From: Polaromonas sp.
Lineage (GTDB): Bacteria > Pseudomonadota > Gammaproteobacteria > Burkholderiales > Burkholderiaceae_C
Assembly (NCBI GenBank): GCA_031410335.1
Contig: JANNYZ010000030.1
Coordinates: 543-64,542 of the forward strand
Direction: 5' to 3'
Length of the DNA: 64,000 bases
The notes beneath the pieces were generated by a model. That model did not search any database, had not been told where the DNA came from, and worked only from the letters and a program-made list of their open reading frames with translations. Shown piece after piece: positions 43,667 through 51,797 of the stretch. The position numbers and the translations under genes were made by a program. Each line of letters begins with the position of its first letter. Position 1 is the first letter of the stretch.

Positions 43667-43942
43667 GCATTTGATTACGAGGTCAGCCACATGAGCAACG
43701 CCAGCAGCCGTTAAGAAAAGGGCAATGCCTTGTGTTTGTTTTGATAGAGCGCACCACACGGCCATCATCAAAAACAAGCCTGAAATCACGTTCCAAAGGT
43801 AATCCTTCGGGGCAATCCCTCGACCAGTCATACGGTGATGAACCAACAGCACAAGGACTTCCAAGGCTGTGACGACCATGACCAATTGCAACAGCTTGCC
43901 GCTCAGTACCCATTCATCCATGACCGCGTAAGCTGAGTTCAC
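43655..43942 (-). CDS. Small hypothetical membrane protein coupled to bchP
   Basis: About 3 hydrophobic segments; GTG start overlaps the bchP stop (GTGA). The start may be 43921. Confidence 0.7.
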   Translation of the reverse strand: MNSAYAVMDEWVLSGKLLQLVMVVTALEVLVLLVHHRMTGRGIAPKDYLWNVISGLFLMMAVWCALSKQTQGIALFLTAAGVAHVADLVIKCKKR

Positions 43943-45144
43943 ACTTTGGCCAGGCCCAGCAGATGGCCCATGTCCTTGATGAAAATGCGCACATGAGCCA
44001 TGGGTTTTTTGCGCACCAGCTTTTTATTCATGTAGGACTCAAAAGTCAGTTGCTGAACGTCACGGTCTTCGCACATTTTGACAAAGCGTTCGCGCCGCTT
44101 TTCGCTGCCATACCAGAACCACTGCATGACGCCCAGCACGCCAAAAACCAGGCCGTGGGCCTTCATAAAGCGTTTGCGGGCCAGCTTCAGGGTGCTAACG
44201 TCACCTGTCTGCAGCAGCTCATGCACCGATTGGGCAGCCAGCTGGCCGCCGTACATGGCGTAGTAAATGCCTTCGCCTGAGGCTGGAGCCACCACGCCAG
44301 CAGCGTCGCCTGCCAGCACCACGTCGCGGCCGTTGTCCCAGCGCTTGAGGGGCTTCATGGGCAGCGGCGCCCCTTCACGGCGCAAGACCTCGGCGGTTTC
44401 CAGGCCGGCGATTTGCCGCAACTGTCCCACCGCACCGCGCAGTGAAAAGCCTTTGTCGGCGCTTCCGGTACCAATACTCAGCGTATCGCCATGCGGGAAC
44501 ACCCAGCCGTAAAAATCAGGCGACAGCTTGCCCTGGTAGTACACGTCGCAGCGCGTGTCGTCATAGCCCGCAGGTTTGACGGCTGGGGCGCGTACGATCT
44601 CGTGGTACGCAAAAACACATTTGGGGTGGCTCGCGCCCGGCACGGTCTGGCGTGCCACTTCAGACCTTGCGCCGTCGGCGCCAATGATGCTGCGCGCGCG
44701 AACGCGGGCAGCAAAGCCCCCGGATTTTTGCGCATGTGAGCGTGCTTCAAAATGCACCACAGCCATGCCGTCGGGGTCACGCTCGATGCGTTCAAAAGTG
44801 CCAATTCGGCGTACTGCACCGCTGGTTGCAGCGCGCTCGCGAAGCCATTCGTCAAACTCTTCACGATTGACCATGCCCACAAAACCGTTGTCGATAGGAA
44901 TGTCGACCTGGTTGTTTTTGGGTGAAACCATGCGTGCCGATGTGGCGCGTGCAACCAGCAGTTTGTCGGGGATGGCAAAGTCTTTGATGAGGCGAGGGGG
45001 AATTGCGCCTCCACAGGGCTTCACGCGGCCTGCACGGTCAAGCAGCAAGACAGATCGGCCCCTCCGTGCCAGATCATGCGCCGCTGTTGCGCCAGCTGGA
45101 CCGCCGCCCACAATCACCACGTCAAAAGTTTCTGTCATGCTCAT
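43939..45144 (-). CDS. bchP: Geranylgeranyl reductase
   Basis: VVGGGPAG, KPCGGAIPP, YGWVFPHG, GDAAG...GEGIYYA; ATG 45144 has an AAAGG RBS. Confidence 0.96.
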   Translation of the reverse strand: MSMTETFDVVIVGGGPAGATAAHDLARRGRSVLLLDRAGRVKPCGGAIPPRLIKDFAIPDKLLVARATSARMVSPKNNQVDIPIDNGFVGMVNREEFDEWLRERAATSGAVRRIGTFERIERDPDGMAVVHFEARSHAQKSGGFAARVRARSIIGADGARSEVARQTVPGASHPKCVFAYHEIVRAPAVKPAGYDDTRCDVYYQGKLSPDFYGWVFPHGDTLSIGTGSADKGFSLRGAVGQLRQIAGLETAEVLRREGAPLPMKPLKRWDNGRDVVLAGDAAGVVAPASGEGIYYAMYGGQLAAQSVHELLQTGDVSTLKLARKRFMKAHGLVFGVLGVMQWFWYGSEKRRERFVKMCEDRDVQQLTFESYMNKKLVRKKPMAHVRIFIKDMGHLLGLAKV

Positions 45145-45162
45145 GTTGTTCACCTTTAGTGA

Positions 45163-46527
45163 CTATGCATTACTTGCTAGGGAGAAAGAAGTCGGTTGGT
45201 ACTGGCTTGCCGGCGCGTCGTTTTTGGCGGGGTTACCCACCCGCCAAGCCAACACCGCAGACAGCACAAACAGTGCTGCCTCAAAGCCAAACACGCTGGC
45301 ATAGGCCACGCCAGGCGATGTAATCAGCCAGCGCGCGATGTCACTGGCGGCTGTACCCATCAAACCACCAAGGCCAAAAGCCACCGCCTGCGCTGCGCCC
45401 CACAGGCCCATGCGCACGCCCTCGCGCGCATGCCGGCCCTGGTTGGCCAAACGCATCATTGAGCTGATGGCACCGATTGAAAACGCACCGTTCGCCACGC
45501 CGAGTGCAAAGACGGTTGTCTTGAGCGGCCAGCCAGGCCCAACAAAACCGGCGGCGCTCAAAGCTGACAGTGCCAGGGCTGATGCGATGCAGCCGCCCAC
45601 ACTCCACCCGCGCAAAGAGCCGATATGACGCAGACCGGGCTTGTGTGAGCAGCGGGCGCCCAGCACGCCCGCCAGTGCCACCAATAACATGCCTGCCAGC
45701 ACGCCGCCGTGCTGCAAGCCAGACAAAGACGTTGACGCACCCGGTGTGAAGCCAAATACGGTGCCAGCAAAGGGCTCCAGAATCAGGTCTTGCGCGCTGT
45801 AGGCCAGCATGGAAACAAACACAAAAATAGTGAACTGCCGGGCGGCTGGCTCGGCCCAGACCCCGGCCAGCGCCTGGACAAAGCCGGGTTGTCCCGCTTC
45901 GCTGGTCCGAGGCGTTTCAGCTGCCCTCGGCGCATGGCCTTCAAGCCCATAAATGGCGATCAGTGCAAGCACAAAAGCAGCGCTGCAAACCCCTGCGGTG
46001 ACCAGCACCAGTCTTAGTGGTGAATAAGGATCAAGCAGCTTGCCAGCCAGCCCTGACGTGACCGCAAAGCCAAAAATCATCATCATCCAGACAATCGTTG
46101 CGGCCGCTGCGCGCCTGCCTTCGGGTACACGCTTGGCTAGCATGACCAGCAATGACGTGCCACTGGCACTCACGCCCAAGCCGATCACGCAAAACGCCAA
46201 AACGGCCAGTGCAATGCCCGCGATACGGTTGCTGGCCATCCATGCCGTAGCCATAGACGCCAGCACACCACCTGAAGCCAGTACTGCCATGCCACCCACG
46301 ATCCAGGGCGTGCGACGACCGCCCACGTCAGAGCCAAAACCCATGCGTGGTCTGGCTAACTGCACGATGTAATGCAGCGCCACCAAGAAGCCGGGCAGCA
46401 GTGCAGGCAAAGCCAGCTCGACCACCATGACCCGATTCAGCGTTGAGGTGGTCAGGACCACCATGGCACCCAGCGCCGCCTGTACCAGGCCGACACGCAC
46501 GATCTGCAGCCAGCCAAATGGGATCAT
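45163..46527 (-). CDS. pucC: BCD/PucC-family MFS protein
   Basis: Start at ATG 46527 (MIPFGWLQIVRVGL); TSTLNRVMVVEL, SDVGGRRTPWI, QDLILEPF; lies between bchG and bchP. Confidence 0.85.
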   Translation of the reverse strand: MIPFGWLQIVRVGLVQAALGAMVVLTTSTLNRVMVVELALPALLPGFLVALHYIVQLARPRMGFGSDVGGRRTPWIVGGMAVLASGGVLASMATAWMASNRIAGIALAVLAFCVIGLGVSASGTSLLVMLAKRVPEGRRAAAATIVWMMMIFGFAVTSGLAGKLLDPYSPLRLVLVTAGVCSAAFVLALIAIYGLEGHAPRAAETPRTSEAGQPGFVQALAGVWAEPAARQFTIFVFVSMLAYSAQDLILEPFAGTVFGFTPGASTSLSGLQHGGVLAGMLLVALAGVLGARCSHKPGLRHIGSLRGWSVGGCIASALALSALSAAGFVGPGWPLKTTVFALGVANGAFSIGAISSMMRLANQGRHAREGVRMGLWGAAQAVAFGLGGLMGTAASDIARWLITSPGVAYASVFGFEAALFVLSAVLAWRVGNPAKNDAPASQYQPTSFSLASNA

Positions 46528-47435
46528 GCGCTGACTCCCGGCAAGCCTGCAGACAGGCTTCGCAATGCAAATGCGCTGATCATCATGCCCGCGACAAACA
46601 GCGGCACACCAAAGCCGCTGTACCACAGCGCACGCTGCGTGACGCTGGCCAAAAACCGCCACATCATCATGAGCTGGAGCACAACCAGAGCGGCAATGGC
46701 CAGTGCATGCCAGGGGCGTTCCCAGCCCAGCAGCAACACGATCACTACCAGCTGCGACACCACCATCACGGCGCATGCCACGCGGGCAGCATTTTGAACG
46801 CCCAATTGAACGGGCAGGGAGCGCACGCCCATCTGGCGATCACCCTCTACGGCTTTAAAGTCATTGAGCGTCATGATGCCGTGGGTGCCCACGCTGTATA
46901 GCGCCGCCAACAGCAGTGAACGGCTGTCAGGCATGATTCCGCCAGCCATCACAGCCGCACCGGTTACCCAGGCAATCCCTTCGTAGCTGAAACCGCAAGC
47001 AGCGTTGCCCCACCAACCATTTTCTTTCAGGCGCACGGGCGGCGCACTGTAGGCCCAGGCGAGCAGAAGCCCCACCATCGCTGCCCCAAAGCCCCAAGGC
47101 CCCAGCACGGTCGCCACCAGTAATGAAATCATGGTCCACAGCACCGCCAGATACAAACCCCAGCGCCCAGGCATTCGGCCTGAAGGAATCGGCCTTTGCG
47201 GCTCGTTGATGGCATCCACATGGCGGTCAAACCAGTCATTCACCGCTTGGCTGGTGGCGCAAACGAATGGTCCGGCCAGAGCGACGCCAACGACGGCCAG
47301 TATCCATTTGCCCTGCATGGCCATCCCGGAAGCCACCACGCCGCAAGTGAATGCCCACATGGGCGGAAACCACGTGATCGGCTTGAAAAGCTCAGCCACG
47401 GTAGACAGGCTGGGCCTGGGGTTGATTACAGACAT
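46524..47435 (-). CDS. bchG: Bacteriochlorophyll synthase
   Basis: KPITWFPPMWA, NDWFDRHVDAINEP-x-RPIPSGR, NDFKAVEGD. Confidence 0.96.
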   Translation of the reverse strand: MSVINPRPSLSTVAELFKPITWFPPMWAFTCGVVASGMAMQGKWILAVVGVALAGPFVCATSQAVNDWFDRHVDAINEPQRPIPSGRMPGRWGLYLAVLWTMISLLVATVLGPWGFGAAMVGLLLAWAYSAPPVRLKENGWWGNAACGFSYEGIAWVTGAAVMAGGIMPDSRSLLLAALYSVGTHGIMTLNDFKAVEGDRQMGVRSLPVQLGVQNAARVACAVMVVSQLVVIVLLLGWERPWHALAIAALVVLQLMMMWRFLASVTQRALWYSGFGVPLFVAGMMISAFALRSLSAGLPGVSA

Positions 47436-47438
47436 AGT

Positions 47439-47482
47439 TGTATTATTTGATTGACAATGTATAGTGTCAACTATTATTTACA
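47439..47482. promoter_or_regulatory. Tandem PpsR/CrtJ boxes in the bchG / ppsR-paralogue divergent promoter
   Basis: Two exact TGT-N12-ACA palindromes (47439-47456 and 47465-47482), 8 bp apart, each containing a TTGACA in opposite orientation. Confidence 0.85.
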
Positions 47483-47622
47483 CTGACATTGAATTTCAGC
47501 TCCGTCGAGCGGTTCAAGAGTTCAGTGCTGCAAATCAACCACAGCATGGCTGCCATCCAATTCATGCTGCGGGCCAGGGTCTATCGTGACCTGTTGGCCG
47601 CCAAATGGATGAAGGGGATGTG

Positions 47623-49029
47623 ATGACGACATCAAACAATGCCATGACTTTTTCACAGTCGCTGTCAGAGTGGGCGCCTGAACTGGCGCAGACCATGGTC
47701 AGTCTGGGCGGTGACATTGCACTTGTGCTCGACCAACACGGCATCGTGCGCCGCGTAGACCAGCGTGCATCAACACCTCTGGCCAGTGATGCCAACACCT
47801 GGATAGGCCAGCGCTGGACGGACACGGTCACCCTTGAGAGCAAGCCCAAGCTTGAACGTCTGATTGCCGAGGCTTCGGCTGATTGCGCAACGCGCAAACG
47901 CGAGGTCAATCACTCGGCTGACAACGGCACAACCATCGCCGTAGCCTACACCGCCATGCGGCTAGGAACGGGCGGTCCCATTTTGGCTGTGGGGCGTGAC
48001 TTGGGCATCAGCGCTGCGTTGCAGCAACGCTTTTTGGGTGCGCAGCAAGAAATGGAGCGCAACTACAGTCGCGCGCGCCAGTCTGAAGCGCGTTACCGGC
48101 TGCTTTTTCAGGTGGCTACCGATGCCGTTATTGTTGTTGACGGCACAACGCTTTGCATTGTTGAGGCCAACCAGAGTGCGACCGACTTGTTTGACCTGAC
48201 GGCGGCGCAGGTGGTTGGACAGAACGCTGAGTTTGCGTTTGAGCGCGAGTCGCGTCGCGTGATGACAGCTGGCCTGAAGGCAGCCCTGAGCAGCGGACAG
48301 TCCACACAAACACGCACCTTTTTGCGCGGCAAGGCTCGCAGCGCTTGTGTGACGGCCACACCCTTCAAGGTGCTGGACACCACACAGTTGCTGGTGCGAA
48401 TTCGCACGACCGAACAATTGGCCACCTCCAGCGATCTGGGTGCTACGCTGGCGCGACTGGTTGACAGTGCCACGGAAGGTGTGGCCGTGACGGATGTTGA
48501 CGGTTGCGTTCTGGTGGCGAACCCGGCATTTCTAAAGCTGGTGGAAGCTAGCACAGAGGCTTCAGTCAGAGGCCGGCCTTTGTCCGACTGGATCAGTCTG
48601 CCAAATGAACCCTTCACCGCGCTGCTGCATCAGGTCAAGCAGGAGGGCATGACTGACTATGCGCAGTCGCAGGTGATGCTCAGCAACGCCTTACTCAAAC
48701 CGGTTGAAGTTGCCGCAACGCTACTCAGTGAAATTGACCCGCCCTGCATTGGCTTCAGTGTGCGGCTGGTTGCTACGGCCAACGGTGATGTGTCTGCCAC
48801 GGTAGAGCCGGTGCAGGCAGCTGTCAAGGTGCTGTGCGATCAGGTGGGCAGTCAGGCTCTGCCAGAGCTGATGAGGCGCGCCGCAGACATGTTGCAGCGT
48901 AACTTTATTCGCCTGGCGATGGAGCGCGCAGGAGCCGATCTGAACAAGGCCGCGACGATTTTGGGCATTAACCGGCAGCAGCTTGAGATGTTGTACCAGC
49001 CTGGCACTGGGACGCAAAGTAACGGGTGA
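47623..49029 (+). CDS. Divergent PpsR paralogue (PAS domains plus Fis-type HTH)
   Basis: Aligns by eye with the neighbouring PpsR (DIALVLD, YRLLFQVA, C-terminal VG...L...AA-x-x-LG). The start may be 47605. Confidence 0.85.
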   Translation: MTTSNNAMTFSQSLSEWAPELAQTMVSLGGDIALVLDQHGIVRRVDQRASTPLASDANTWIGQRWTDTVTLESKPKLERLIAEASADCATRKREVNHSADNGTTIAVAYTAMRLGTGGPILAVGRDLGISAALQQRFLGAQQEMERNYSRARQSEARYRLLFQVATDAVIVVDGTTLCIVEANQSATDLFDLTAAQVVGQNAEFAFERESRRVMTAGLKAALSSGQSTQTRTFLRGKARSACVTATPFKVLDTTQLLVRIRTTEQLATSSDLGATLARLVDSATEGVAVTDVDGCVLVANPAFLKLVEASTEASVRGRPLSDWISLPNEPFTALLHQVKQEGMTDYAQSQVMLSNALLKPVEVAATLLSEIDPPCIGFSVRLVATANGDVSATVEPVQAAVKVLCDQVGSQALPELMRRAADMLQRNFIRLAMERAGADLNKAATILGINRQQLEMLYQPGTGTQSNG

Positions 49030-49059
49030 CAGGCTGCCCGATGCACAGGCTGAACGGAT

Positions 49060-50520
49060 TTAGCTGGTTGTTTCAGACAGGGCATCGCCCACGCCAAAAC
49101 GCCTGAGCTTGACGTAAAGACTTTGTCGCGAGAGGCCCAGCATTTCTGCCGCTGCAGCGCGGTTGTCGCCTGTCAGCTCAAGTGCTGCCTCGATGCACAG
49201 CTCTTCAATCAGATCGGTGGTTTCCCGAACGATATCGCGTAAAGGAACACGGCCGACTAGCTCGGTCATCTGACCGGGTGAACGTGGCATGTCCTTGCCC
49301 GCAACCTGTGTCTCGCCCATCAGGCGTCTGCCGACGTCGCGAATGGTGAAAGCCAGACACGCCTGGTCTCCAGTGCCAACGGATACTGCTGAAATCTCAA
49401 CATCAGCTTTGGCACCATACTCACCCTGCATCGTAGTGGCATACAAACGCACCGCACCGCGCTGCTTTAAATTTGACACCAGCACATTCATGTCCACTCC
49501 GCTACGACCCAGCCATTTTTGAAGCGACTCACCGCGAACCAGCGCGTCGCTGGCAAGCTGGGTCAGCTCCAGAAAAGCGCGATTTACCGACTGAACGCGA
49601 CCCTCAGCATCGGTCATTGCAAATGCGTCGGGGGCGTTTTCCAGCGCTTTGAGCAGTAACTGGGTCGCGCTGTTTTCGCTGGATTCAACCTGGGGACCGG
49701 TAGAGTTGATACGCAACAGCAGGTGGGTGGAATTCTCTTGCCTGAACAGCGATCCCGACAATGAAAACGCCTCGGCCAAGCCATCAAAACAAACGGTGAT
49801 GGGATCAGCACGACCATTACTGCGCAACGCGGCAAACAGCTGCTGTACGCCCGGAACACTCAAGGAGTCCAGACTGTCAGCAAATGTCCAGCCTGCGGTA
49901 CGTGCCCTGTCACCGAGAAGCTTGTAGGCAGCGGGATTGGCTTCTTCGAGTTTTTCTGAAGTGGCATCCAGAATCAGCACGGCCTCCGACGCCACCTGAA
50001 ATAACAGTCGGTAGCGGGTCTCAACATGGCGTAAGCGCCAGTAATCTCTCTCCATTGACAACTGTGCACTGACAAGGCGCTGCTGCAAAGCCACTTGCGA
50101 ACGCAGGTCCCGCCCGAATGCGACCGAATGCCGGCGTCCAGCCTCGCGCCTGATCGGCACAATCGTGTACGAAAGCGCCAGGTCGGCCTTGTTGACCGAG
50201 GGGTGGTTAATATGCCGCCACTTGGAACTGCCCCCTTGTGCCGCTTCCTTGAGCATTTCCTGAACTTTGGGTTGACTTTCAACCGTGACGGTTTGAAGCC
50301 AAGGCTTGCCCAGCCAGTCCGCGTCTGCGTGTTCTTTGAGTTCATCGCTGGCAAAAGCCATGTCCTGAATGACACCGGCTTCATCCAGAATAAGTGCGAC
50401 ATCAGCTGCAGCCGAAATCAGCGAGGCCGCAGTTTCCGCGTCCAGTCCTGCCAAAAACTGTTCGGGCTGATCAAAATGCCCAAGAACATTTTCTTTAGTC
50501 AACTGTAGGGTGGCATTCAT
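49060..50520 (-). CDS. ppsR: Transcriptional repressor PpsR/CrtJ
   Basis: SMERDYWRLRHVETRYRLLF; ETTDLIEELCIEAALELTGDNRAAAAEMLGLSRQSLYVKLRRFG. Confidence 0.95.
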   Translation of the reverse strand: MNATLQLTKENVLGHFDQPEQFLAGLDAETAASLISAAADVALILDEAGVIQDMAFASDELKEHADADWLGKPWLQTVTVESQPKVQEMLKEAAQGGSSKWRHINHPSVNKADLALSYTIVPIRREAGRRHSVAFGRDLRSQVALQQRLVSAQLSMERDYWRLRHVETRYRLLFQVASEAVLILDATSEKLEEANPAAYKLLGDRARTAGWTFADSLDSLSVPGVQQLFAALRSNGRADPITVCFDGLAEAFSLSGSLFRQENSTHLLLRINSTGPQVESSENSATQLLLKALENAPDAFAMTDAEGRVQSVNRAFLELTQLASDALVRGESLQKWLGRSGVDMNVLVSNLKQRGAVRLYATTMQGEYGAKADVEISAVSVGTGDQACLAFTIRDVGRRLMGETQVAGKDMPRSPGQMTELVGRVPLRDIVRETTDLIEELCIEAALELTGDNRAAAAEMLGLSRQSLYVKLRRFGVGDALSETTS

Positions 50521-51485
50521 TAAGTAGAGGGGGTTTTCGGCAAATCGCTGCTTTTGGGTTTACCCGACGATTGTGCCGCAACAAGTCGAGCGGCCAAAGT
50601 CGGGGCCTGCGCACCGTCGGTGGATGCTGCATCCGCGTTGACATAAGAAACGTACTCGGGATGAGCCAGAAACAAAGGTCCGCCAACAAGAATGCTGATG
50701 GCCGAGTTCAGTGCAGATTTTCGAATCTGTTTGATGCATTCAGCCAACGCGTCAAGCCGCGTGGCGTCGCCAAGTGAAAACCCCACCACATCGAACCACT
50801 CGCTTTGCACCATCATCACTGGATCGGCTCCCGCTTCCCAAGGGCCGCCACCAACATCCCAGCCAGCCCGTCGGAAAAACTCAGACACCATCACCAGGCC
50901 AAAAGTGTGTTGTTCTCCCGGGGCCGGCAGCAGCAGGGCTCGCCGACCATTGGCCTTGTGATGAGACTGGCTAAACGCGGGACTCAGCTCGCGCAAAACC
51001 TGATGCAATCGGCCCAGTCCAAGCGTGACTTCTGTGAAGTCGCACAAGTCTTCTTCCCACAACTCGCCCAGATACCGTGCAACAGGGGCCAGCAGGTCGG
51101 TATAAATTGTTTCCACCGATACACCGCTGCTGCGCATGGTTTCAATGCATGCGTGGGCTACGTTTTCATCAGGCGCAAGCACCAGTTTTGCGAAAGCGGT
51201 GACATCCTCAGCGCTGACTTTGGGGCTTGAAGACGGCGCAACGGCGAGGCAGTCCTCTGCCGTCGGATGAGCAAGCATCAAACGCGGAATGATTTCGTGC
51301 TCTATGGCACGCGAAAGTACAGCAAGCCGTAGTTCAACTGCCTCTCTATTTGCATCCGTTGCTATGCGCGCCAGTGCCTGGCTGCCGTTGGTATAGGTTT
51401 GGCTGACAGCTTCAGAATCTACAGACCTGTTCGCTGGGCTGGATTCACTGGATGTGATTGCCTGGTTGTTGGTGTAAGCGTTCAT
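50520..51485 (-). CDS. aerR: Cobalamin-binding antirepressor AerR/PpaA
   Basis: IEHEIIPRL, LGELWEED-x-CDF, PGEQHTFG, GWDV; TAATG-coupled to ppsR. Confidence 0.9.
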   Translation of the reverse strand: MNAYTNNQAITSSESSPANRSVDSEAVSQTYTNGSQALARIATDANREAVELRLAVLSRAIEHEIIPRLMLAHPTAEDCLAVAPSSSPKVSAEDVTAFAKLVLAPDENVAHACIETMRSSGVSVETIYTDLLAPVARYLGELWEEDLCDFTEVTLGLGRLHQVLRELSPAFSQSHHKANGRRALLLPAPGEQHTFGLVMVSEFFRRAGWDVGGGPWEAGADPVMMVQSEWFDVVGFSLGDATRLDALAECIKQIRKSALNSAISILVGGPLFLAHPEYVSYVNADAASTDGAQAPTLAARLVAAQSSGKPKSSDLPKTPST

Positions 51486-51763: not shown

Positions 51764-51797
51764 TGTCAATTTAAATTTACGTCAATATAAGTTGACA
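51764..51797. promoter_or_regulatory. Overlapping near-consensus PpsR boxes upstream of bchF
   Basis: TGT-N12-ACG (51764-51781) and CGT-N12-ACA (51780-51797), one mismatch each. Confidence 0.7.

Follow-up and report, generated by a model that had tools for sequence, protein, structure and literature searches.

What does a second PpsR-like gene do beside the repressor that it resembles? Bacteriochlorophyll-based photosynthesis has PpsR/CrtJ as its central repressor, and in the window, by which we mean the whole 64-kb stretch of DNA analysed, two genes of this family converge tail to tail: a PpsR2-like paralogue that we call PARA (468 aa, 47623..49029, + strand) and canonical ppsR (486 aa, 49060..50520, - strand). 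Their stop codons lie 30 nt apart (spacer 49030..49059), as a first-pass annotation of the sequence had described. Comparison with related genomes indicates that the locus is a variant of the known PpsR2/BphP arrangement, phytochrome-orphaned at this site. To our best explanation as a whole, observed facts and proposed mechanism taken together, we assign a probability of about 0.5; the observed part by itself we hold with high confidence. The mechanism, in which PARA would modulate PpsR by protein contacts, is put forward tentatively, at somewhat less than even odds.

The description of PARA draws on its open reading frame, TIGR02040, BLASTP, phmmer, an AF2 model and dN/dS. A second in-frame ATG at 47605 would give a protein of 474 aa (47605-49029); the homologues begin with MTTSNN and the Shine-Dalgarno sequence GAAGGGGA precedes 47623, therefore the start at 47623 is supported. 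PARA is 31% identical to the neighbouring PpsR over 446 aa (BLASTP, E 2e-60), a similarity far above chance. Residues 13-381 (369 residues) align by phmmer to R. sphaeroides PpsR (4HH2), and the PpsR-type architecture of N-PAS (47650-48000), Q helix (48001-48120), PAS1 (48124-48408) and PAS2 (48478-48768), all on the + strand, is retained, in agreement with the AF2 secondary structure. On the PpsR-CrtJ profile TIGR02040, PARA covers positions 3-433 of 442 and scores 263.2 bits, short of the 275.4-bit cut-off that the neighbouring ppsR, with 485.2 bits, exceeds.

Is such a pair peculiar to this genome? The first-pass annotation knew of no regulatory circuit of this kind in betaproteobacteria, but a two-PpsR layout is not unusual there: 494 matches to PARA were obtained at E <= 1e-3, and the genomes of 219 Burkholderiales species contain relatives of it. 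We kept 80 PARA loci, 22 of class A, the window's Polaromonas-like lineage, and 58 others; their labels are Polaromonas, Variovorax, Rhodoferax, Ramlibacter, Methylibium, Rhizobacter, Caldimonas and similar, and named members of the clade come from Azohydromonas, Calidifontimicrobium and Ideonella. DNA runs holding PARA are freshwater-sediment, sediment, soil and freshwater metagenomes, and no RNA run holding the gene was found. The surroundings of the gene recur as well. bchG, encoding bacteriochlorophyll synthase (46524..47435, - strand; NCBIfam TIGR01476/NF005742), is the first gene of a leftward bchG-pucC-like-bchP unit divergent to PARA and holds the same position next to it in every class A and class B locus. 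Immediately upstream of ppsR lies an aerR/ppaA-type gene for a B12-binding regulator (50520..51485, - strand; Pfam B12-binding and B12-binding_2), located in the same place in all class A and class B loci and in those of Rhodopseudomonas and Bradyrhizobium. The photosynthesis cluster is only partly in the window and extends past its right end.

A gene that falls below the cut-offs of both TIGR02040 and HTH_8, and whose ten-residue tail (459-468) is nearly neutral with an omega of 0.58, might be taken for a functionless decaying relic or for a recent local duplicate of ppsR. Selection and phylogeny, as read from the sequences, already refute this reading, which we consider hardly conceivable. 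An intact frame is shared by 23 class A sequences and 58 others. The dN/dS of PARA, 0.03-0.10, equals that of ppsR and bchG (these values are approximate, dS being near saturation at 1.3-1.8) and is lowest, 0.05, in the HTH-like part; the decay that the first-pass annotation had named as grounds for giving up its proposal is thus not seen. Nor does the local duplication that it had considered agree with the tree. The PARA clade is monophyletic with 100% bootstrap (NJ) and stands apart from the clade of PpsR and PpsR1. The neighbouring ppsR clusters with PpsR1 of alphaproteobacteria (99% bootstrap, 48% identity), and PARA, 31% identical to its neighbour, shows about 25-34% identity to each of the other PpsR groups, 25-29% to alphaproteobacterial PpsR2. 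The cis elements upstream of PARA are likewise conserved. Orthology of PARA with alphaproteobacterial PpsR2 is unsupported, as the two were grouped in 1% of replicates (NJ, 300 bootstraps); their equivalence is drawn from synteny and shared motifs, not from sequence phylogeny. In a tree of 145 sequences, 'ERHF' PpsR forms with an intact helix are basal to PARA, and one of these precedes bphP and hmuO. Very probably, as with the observed facts as a whole, PARA is functional and under strong constraint, and it belongs to a large PpsR-like clade of Burkholderiales.

What distinguishes the window from the relatives is the gene that follows. In all 58 loci outside class A a BphP1-type gene, bphP, lies directly downstream of the PARA stop codon, in nearly all of them starting 0-23 nt past it. 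The encoded protein is a non-kinase phytochrome of PAS_2-GAF-PHY-PAS9 composition; its best PDB match is RpBphP1 (4GW9, E 3.6e-164), and an alignment of 716 aa to full-length RpBphP1, the HOS region included, shows 44% identity. A heme oxygenase gene usually comes next; hmuO, on the opposite strand, was detected after bphP in 33 of the 58 loci (E <= 1e-10). Neither bphP nor hmuO was found in the 6-kb flanks searched in the 22 class A loci. Class A spacers between PARA and ppsR measure -4 to 287 nt; those of class B, at 2811-3042 nt, have bphP and hmuO (~2.8 kb) at the site of the window's 30 nt. The absence of a phytochrome from the window, pointed out in the first-pass annotation, was borne out by Pfam searches of the large ORFs and by tblastn with three BphPs (best E 2.5); hmuO is absent from the window too, and tblastn of the window and the class A loci revealed no trace of bphP or hmuO. 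Matches to the HmuO N-terminus (E ~1e-7) proved to be an artefact, the hmuO ORF of locus L024 having been drawn too long, so that it ran into ppsR at its 3' end. Given that bphP follows PARA in 58 of 58 outside loci, PARA appears to be a phytochrome partner by ancestry, and the comparison of loci indicates that the absence of the phytochrome is a derived state.

Was the photoreceptor lost or has it moved? PARA could still be a phytochrome partner, with the BphP1-type gene and heme oxygenase relocated in the genome and a circuit like that of R. palustris PpsR2/BphP1. The invariable coupling of PARA and BphP outside class A speaks for relocation, as does the fact that the window holds part of a photosynthesis cluster that passes its right end. 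Opposing it are the 22 of 22 class A loci with neither the genes nor remnants of them and, as a weak argument because a minority of matches are named, the lack of Polaromonas among the named proteins in the 120 closest homologues of a Rhodoferax BphP, where the names are Rhodoferax, Ramlibacter, Variovorax, Burkholderiaceae and Rhizobiales. Furthermore, PARA protein change was faster on the class A stem branch: the PARA distance between classes A and C is 0.97, versus 0.72 between B and C, the corresponding PpsR distances being 0.85 versus 0.82. Along this stem 25 substitutions were fixed at otherwise conserved PARA sites, as losing a partner would lead one to expect, and after it the constraint on PARA is the same as on ppsR. 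We consider relocation improbable.

The second difference concerns the C-terminus. The first-pass annotation stated that the paralogue lacks the redox cysteine, and this is correct for the canonical position, at which Phe428 of PARA (48904-48906, + strand; MLQRNFIRLAM) is aligned to Cys442 of PpsR (49195-49197, - strand; LIEELCIEAAL), which we take to be the equivalent of the redox-active CrtJ Cys420/PpsR Cys424. Taken for the whole protein the statement is not correct, for class A PARA has gained two new conserved cysteines, Cys88 and Cys405. Residues 397-458 (48811..48996, + strand) form what alignment, HTH_8 and AF2 describe as a degenerate remnant of a Fis-type HTH. PARA scores 17-19.6 bits on HTH_8, below the cut-off of 22, and matches profile positions 4-35 of 42 only; ppsR scores 40 bits. 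By alignment and AF2, the third helix, INRQQLEMLYQ (48967-48999, + strand), is short, 8 residues in the AF2 model, and uncharged. As the first-pass annotation had noted, the recognition helix is rewritten, LGLSRQSLYVKLRRFG facing LGINRQQLEMLYQPG in the alignment of PpsR and PARA: the helix of ppsR is LSRQSLYVKLRRFG (49093-49134, - strand), and that of PARA, NRQQLEMLYQPG, has a net charge of 0 and does not match the PpsR-type pattern SRQSLY[VA]KL[RN]R[YF]G. All 33 canonical PpsR carry a charge of +4 in this helix, and alphaproteobacterial PpsR1/2 one of +3 to +4; within the PARA clade the values are 0 for class A, -0.4 for class B and -3 to +5 for class C. Judged by its low HTH_8 score, the short predicted third helix and the lack of net positive charge, the HTH of PARA is degenerate.

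Does PARA nevertheless bind DNA? It might, like PpsR2 of R. palustris and Bradyrhizobium, still be a DNA-binding factor that recognizes TGT-N12-ACA weakly or a different motif. HTH_8 similarity is detectable, at 19.6 bits in PARA and at E <= 0.01 in 58 of 79 PARA C-termini; the AF2 C-terminus is a compact helical unit (pLDDT 75-84); the lowest omega of the gene falls in the HTH-like segment; the recognition helix of class A keeps its first Arg (NRQQL); and some class C members carry Arg-rich helices, e.g. SLxRRRRR. Given the HTH_8 similarity, the retained Arg and the strong constraint, PARA may make some contact with DNA. However, the class A and class B helices have no net positive charge against an invariant +4 in the canonical proteins, and the HTH_8 match ends at profile position 35 of 42. 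The helix varies widely between genera and 7 members of the clade lack helices 1-2, which one would not expect of a conserved surface that reads DNA; SRQSLYxKLxR is intact in alphaproteobacterial PpsR2 and in the basal 'ERHF' forms. We regard a DNA-binding PARA as unlikely, though a serious contender. The earlier suggestion that the paralogue may not bind TGT-N12-ACA fits the charge of 0 versus +4, the subthreshold HTH_8 score, the 8-residue helix and the clade-wide variation, all of which are consistent with weakened or lost reading of this box.

The DNA upstream of PARA carries conserved signals. In the divergent intergenic region between bchG and PARA two perfect PpsR boxes, TGT-N12-ACA, lie 8 bp apart (47439-47456 and 47465-47482) and overlap a sigma-70-like minus-strand promoter, TTGACA-17-AATAAT (47470 to 47442). 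Both boxes and their 8-bp spacing are present in 20 of 20 class A loci scanned, those with the region present, and class B loci have at least one box. The window as a whole shows no enrichment of TGT-N12-ACA (14 observed versus 16.5 expected); among its matches we attach meaning to the tandem pair at 47439-47482 alone. The boxes are followed by a structured PARA 5' leader (47539..47599, + strand) of two hairpins, 47542-47547/47564-47569 and 47572-47581/47588-47599. By RNAalifold and pair counts in 17 loci, pairing holds in 93.4% of cells, versus 45% or less when slid, and compensatory changes affect 12 of the 16 pairs. A covariance model of the leader matches only class A loci, among them 4 that had been held out, and no Rfam family corresponds to it.

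How, then, might PARA act? Because the whole clade has a degenerate recognition helix, it is plausible that PARA works via protein contacts and not by binding TGT-N12-ACA. PARA alone would no longer read this box, and its contacts would be made by the Q-linker, the PAS domains and the helical C-terminal remnant. We infer that the likeliest partner would be the co-encoded canonical PpsR, the two forming mixed oligomers with fewer DNA-reading heads; such mixing would tune repression at PpsR-box promoters, PARA serving as anti-repressor or modulator. The dominant-negative action through hetero-oligomers suggested in the first-pass annotation is likewise conjectural. Its activity would be phytochrome-gated in the relatives and gated otherwise in class A, possibly by thiol redox or by its own expression level, and the PpsR-box divergent promoter region together with the structured leader could place PARA in a feedback loop. 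We also considered the Q-linker as evidence for heteromerisation and rejected it: its 58% identity between PARA and PpsR is that of RpPpsR1/RpPpsR2, and the linker is the most conserved part family-wide, so it is non-diagnostic. A bolder and distinctly speculative proposal, which we think unlikely, is that class A PARA is a former phytochrome adaptor, put to a new use once its photoreceptor was lost, that does not bind DNA and poisons or remodels PpsR oligomers, with Cys88/Cys405 gating its activity and the leader gating its synthesis. If true, two paralogues would make up a self-contained PpsR/anti-PpsR feedback switch.

To our knowledge, work on the circuit of two PpsRs and a phytochrome has been confined to two alphaproteobacterial genera. 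Phototrophic Burkholderiales include freshwater and soil aerobic phototrophs, and the loci compared here show that a PpsR2/BphP-related module, with a PpsR-like partner whose DNA-binding helix is degenerating, is the rule among them. One abundant cold-freshwater lineage has dropped the photoreceptor from the locus but kept PARA, in a remodelled form. The PARA clade may thus offer a natural series from transcription factor to protein-level modulator, useful for understanding how light control over photosynthesis genes is rewired in aerobic phototrophs. PARA-type proteins also pose an annotation problem, the relatives being annotated as 'PpsR' or merely as 'PAS domain-containing protein'.

Among known systems the closest is PpsR2/BphP1 of Rhodopseudomonas palustris, with BrBphP/PpsR2 of Bradyrhizobium, where, as for PARA, a second PpsR-family gene accompanies a PpsR1-type gene within the photosynthesis cluster. 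The ppsR2-bphP-hmuO layout of these genera is the layout of PARA's relatives, with aerR and bchF beyond, whereas the window locus has neither bphP nor hmuO. The HTH Cys position is aromatic in both systems, Tyr in RpPpsR2 and BrPpsR2 (EQHYV) and Phe in PARA (ERHF in classes B and C, QRNF in the window). RpBphP1 binds PpsR2 under far-red light via HOS helices, and this binding lifts the repression (PMC6899989); that PpsR2 represses by binding DNA has been demonstrated (PMC6899989, PMC10569730). Going by its helix, in which PpsR2's SRQSLYAKLNRYG has become NRQQLEMLYQPG, DNA binding by PARA, unlike that by PpsR2, is doubtful. With canonical PpsR/CrtJ of Rhodobacter, of Rubrivivax gelatinosus and of the neighbouring gene, PARA shares the N-PAS/Q-linker/PAS1/PAS2 order and C-terminal helices; it differs from them in falling below the TIGR02040 and HTH_8 cut-offs, in Phe for Cys442 and in a helix charge of 0 versus +4. 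In Rvi. gelatinosus a single ppsR is reported (PMC4452267). Within Burkholderiales, the literature on a PpsR2-like/BphP module, Polaromonas included, yielded only one annotation remark: the photosynthesis cluster of Roseateles depolymerans holds a 'crtJ homologue (ORF350)' beside ppaA and ppsR (PMC10037100), a second PpsR/CrtJ-like gene and a possible member of the PARA clade. AppA, AerR/PpaA and LdaP alter DNA binding of PpsR/CrtJ by direct contact, and some PpsR anti-repressors are encoded beside ppsR (PMC4452267, PMC10890935, PMC6199135). Their analogy to PARA is functional only, the folds (BLUF-SCHIC, B12-binding and LOV) being unrelated; PARA is itself a PpsR homologue and therefore, in contrast to these proteins, would act not as a foreign ligand of the repressor, but by mixed oligomers with it.

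PARA, the PpsR-like paralogue (47605/47623-49029, plus strand, an ORF of 474/468 aa), and the canonical ppsR (49060-50520, minus strand, 486 aa) are convergent genes whose stop codons lie 30 nt apart, the arrangement that the first-pass annotation had described. The start codon that it had assigned to PARA, 47623, is likely the right one, because most homologues begin with MTTSNN and GAAGGGGA is found upstream of this ATG. Aligned over 446 residues, PARA and PpsR share 31% identity (E 2e-60). To the left of the two genes lie bchP (43939-45153, minus), a pucC-like MFS gene and bchG (46524-47435, minus); to their right lie aerR/ppaA (50520-51485, minus) and, beyond it, the plus-strand genes bchF-bchN-bchB-bchH and onward. 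The photosynthesis cluster continues past the right end of the window, and genes unrelated to photosynthesis occupy the window left of about 43.9 kb. The pucC-like ORF (45163-46776, minus) has no NCBIfam match at E <= 1e-10 and in its listed form shares about 250 nt with bchG; since a pucC-like gene directly follows bchG in related loci, its true start is probably further downstream. Between aerR and bchF, just upstream of the latter, AT-rich TGTCAATTTAAATTTACGTCAATATAAGTTGACA (51764-51797) contains two overlapping imperfect PpsR-like boxes, TGT-N12-ACG and CGT-N12-ACA. The closest relatives are MAGs labelled Polaromonas and one labelled Variovorax (protein identity 86-88%), and the metagenomes that contain this DNA come from freshwater sediment, sediment, soil and freshwater.

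A question arises, is PARA a decaying copy or a recent duplicate? A search of 5.8 billion proteins yielded 494 PARA matches, one group 70-95% and another about 50% identical, and when representatives at 50% identity were searched exhaustively, 559 proteins reached E <= 1e-30. With one genome searched per species, relatives are encoded in 219 species, the best 80 of which carry labels of Burkholderiales genera or broader ones. NCBI names members from Azohydromonas, Calidifontimicrobium and Ideonella 'transcriptional regulator PpsR' and those from Polaromonas 'PAS domain-containing protein'. On TIGR02040, the PpsR-CrtJ family model, PARA scores 263 bits, slightly below the cut-off of 275, with model positions 3-433 of 442 aligned; ppsR scores 485 bits. 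On HTH_8, the profile of the C-terminal helix-turn-helix (HTH; cut-off 22 bits), PARA reaches 17-19.6 bits in a match that stops at profile position 35 of 42, and ppsR 40 bits. In NJ trees with 300 bootstraps PARA is monophyletic (100%), while the neighbouring ppsR clusters with alphaproteobacterial PpsR1 (99%; 48% identity); PARA is 25-34% identical to each of the other PpsR groups. Judged by these relationships, PARA did not arise by local duplication of the gene next to it, an origin that the first-pass annotation had raised. Nor did its second proviso, decay visible in dN/dS, hold. Nei-Gojobori estimates against orthologues from class A, the loci with the window's gene order, indicate purifying selection on PARA (0.03-0.10) as on ppsR (0.04-0.10) and bchG (0.05-0.11); with dS at 1.3-1.8, near saturation, these values are approximate, yet clearly far below 1. 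Omega is 0.05 in the HTH-like segment (residues 406-458) and 0.58 in the last ten residues, the sole part nearing neutrality. Low omega and the NJ phylogeny exclude both a decaying copy and a recent duplicate; on this evidence PARA is to be regarded as an old, widespread and constrained gene.

The gene order of 80 related loci reveals what the window has lost. The window's order recurs in class A (L001-L022). About 14 loci, from Ramlibacter, Rhodoferax, Hydrogenophaga, Caenimonas and others, form class B, which shares this frame, with leftward bchG, rightward PARA, leftward ppsR and aerR and rightward bchF, and a PARA-ppsR gap of 2.8-3.0 kb. In class C (Variovorax, Methylibium, Rhizobacter, Caldimonas and others) acsF-like and puhE-like (DUF3623) genes precede PARA, as seen in the one locus inspected (L035), and the same extra DNA as in class B follows it. 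This DNA encodes a protein of 717-733 aa whose start overlaps or abuts the PARA stop, with domains PAS_2-GAF-PHY-PAS9 and no kinase, and then, on the opposite strand, a heme oxygenase (hmuO). The closest solved structure is RpBphP1 (4GW9, E 3.6e-164), and identity to full-length RpBphP1 is 44% over 716 residues, including the HOS output region. By tblastn, counting partial copies at contig ends, the phytochrome directly follows PARA in all 58 class B and C loci (hmuO was found in 33 of them) and in none of the 22 class A loci. The first-pass annotation had likewise seen no phytochrome in the window; Pfam detects none in its large ORFs, and three BphPs used as tblastn queries had no match below E 2.5. 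Because classes A and B cluster together (81% bootstrap, NJ) inside a clade whose remaining branches all have bphP, the phytochrome-less state is, on this tree, a derived loss. Class A PARA-ppsR spacers, -4 to 287 nt long, hold no remnant of bphP or hmuO. Relocation of the phytochrome elsewhere in the genome we consider improbable; it would be compatible with PARA as a modulator or as a DNA-binding protein. Among L023-L080, BphP is 60-75% identical, against about 45-53% for PARA between classes; as BphP is far better conserved across Burkholderiales, the PpsR-like partner is the fast-evolving half of the pair.

PARA's HTH has degenerated. Alignment pairs PpsR Cys442 with PARA Phe428 and PpsR LGLSRQSLYVKLRRFG with PARA LGINRQQLEMLYQPG, which agrees with the loss of the redox Cys and the replaced recognition helix (the third helix) noted on first reading. 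Canonical PpsR keeps LCIEAAL...LGLSRQSLYVKLRRFG, helix charge +4, invariant in 33/33 Burkholderiales sequences. Alphaproteobacterial PpsR2 retains the helix (SRQSLYAKLNRYG, +3) and reads EQHYV at the Cys position, a His/aromatic signature common to PARA (ERHF; QRNF in class A). The PARA recognition helix is NRQQL[ED]xLNQ in class A (charge 0), takes forms such as SRERLDLPP in class B (-0.4) and ranges from Arg-rich (SLxRRRRR, +5) to acidic (-3) in class C. Helices 1-2 are deleted in seven class C members (L051, L055, L056, L059, L064, L065 and L073), so that these have lost more of the DNA-binding domain than the rest of the clade; they still precede a full-length bphP. The AF2 model of PARA (mean pLDDT 73.5, pTM 0.34) comprises N-PAS, a long Q helix, PAS1 and PAS2, then C-terminal helices 397-406, 413-435 and 440-447 and an eight-residue third helix, 451-458 (pLDDT 75-84). 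The main rival reading, which we hold unlikely, is that PARA has kept its DNA binding, perhaps at another motif; HTH_8 similarity at E <= 0.01 in 58 of 79 members is consistent with it. Since the DNA-reading surface varies so much from genus to genus, with the PAS and Q parts conserved, the comparison argues against sequence-specific DNA reading as the function that the clade has conserved. In class A, the strong constraint on PARA in turn argues that its helical remnant serves something else, for which dimerisation or partner binding would be the obvious candidate. In a model of RpBphP1-RpPpsR2, phytochrome HOS helices contact the PpsR2 HTH domain (PMC6899989).

Relative-rate comparison shows that extra change in PARA fell on the class A stem: PARA distances are 0.97 (A-C) and 0.72 (B-C) substitutions per site, those of ppsR 0.85 and 0.82, with no excess, and divergence inside class A is equal for the two (0.28 and 0.29). 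Classes B and C share 197 conserved positions, and at 25 of these class A has a switched and fixed residue; among the changes are EGDQEC to EIDPPC (PAS2) and ERHF to QRNF. Two cysteines are class-A-specific, Cys88 (47884-47886, plus; 20/21 class A, Gly in 55/55 others) and Cys405 (48835-48837, plus; 21/21, with Ala, Thr or Ser in others), the latter shortly before the HTH-like helices; Cys375 is clade-wide.

The bchG/PARA intergenic region contains two perfect TGT-N12-ACA boxes (47439-47456 and 47465-47482), 8 bp apart, which overlap the -35 and -10 of a strong sigma-70-like, bchG-facing promoter on the minus strand (TTGACA-17-AATAAT). The pair is present in 20/20 class A loci scanned with the region present, and class B loci have at least one box there. 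A plus-strand TTGACA-15-TATTAT could serve PARA, but its spacing is short. Downstream of the boxes and ahead of the PARA start codon, the 5' leader (47539-47599, plus) carries a two-hairpin element with clear covariation: 93.4% of cells pair, against 45% or less in slid controls, 12 of 16 pairs show compensatory changes, and none of 500 shuffles attains the observed value. G.U pairs outnumber A.C pairs (24 vs 5), which favours the plus strand. The loop reads TATCGT, closed by invariant UC..GA pairs. The leader has no Rfam match; its covariance model recovered four class A loci that had been held out (E 1e-14 to 1e-19), with no match in class B, class C or alphaproteobacterial loci. PARA is thus preceded both by a region with PpsR boxes and by a structured leader specific to the lineage.

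The analysis establishes what PARA is and descends from, the loss of the photoreceptor genes, the degenerate HTH, purifying selection and the cis elements. For its mechanism, we propose that PARA itself does not read TGT-N12-ACA and would modulate PpsR by forming mixed oligomers or by some other protein contact; the phytochrome would gate this activity in relatives, and in class A a different input, possibly thiol redox or control of its own synthesis, would act on PARA. To the whole scheme we assign a probability of about 0.4-0.5.

In the searchable literature no account was found of the PARA clade, of its link to a phytochrome in Burkholderiales or of the Polaromonas-type variant orphaned from it. 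The sole possible trace is a remark on a 'crtJ homologue' beside ppsR in Roseateles depolymerans (PMC10037100); a single ppsR is reported for Rvi. gelatinosus (PMC4452267). Measured against canonical PpsR, PARA falls short on curated score, HTH_8 threshold, recognition helix and Cys. A representative basal to PARA, P0265, combines ERHF with an intact recognition helix and precedes a phytochrome and hmuO. A PpsR-like representative with ERDF and an intact helix belongs to the P0355 cluster, which includes members from Myxococcota MAGs; this hints at PpsR2-like forms in phototrophs outside Proteobacteria. Among known systems, PpsR2/BphP1 of R. palustris and Bradyrhizobium comes closest (PMC4452267, PMC6899989, PMC10569730). 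Loci found there through RpBphP1 homologues read ppsR1-bchG-pucC-bchP-tspO and, further along, rightward ppsR2 and bphP1, leftward hmuO and aerR and rightward bchF, the same module in the same neighbourhood as PARA-phytochrome-hmuO of classes B and C. In NJ trees with 300 bootstraps PARA joins alphaproteobacterial PpsR2 in 1% of replicates, and in the window it differs from this system in having no adjacent bphP, no hmuO and no intact helix.
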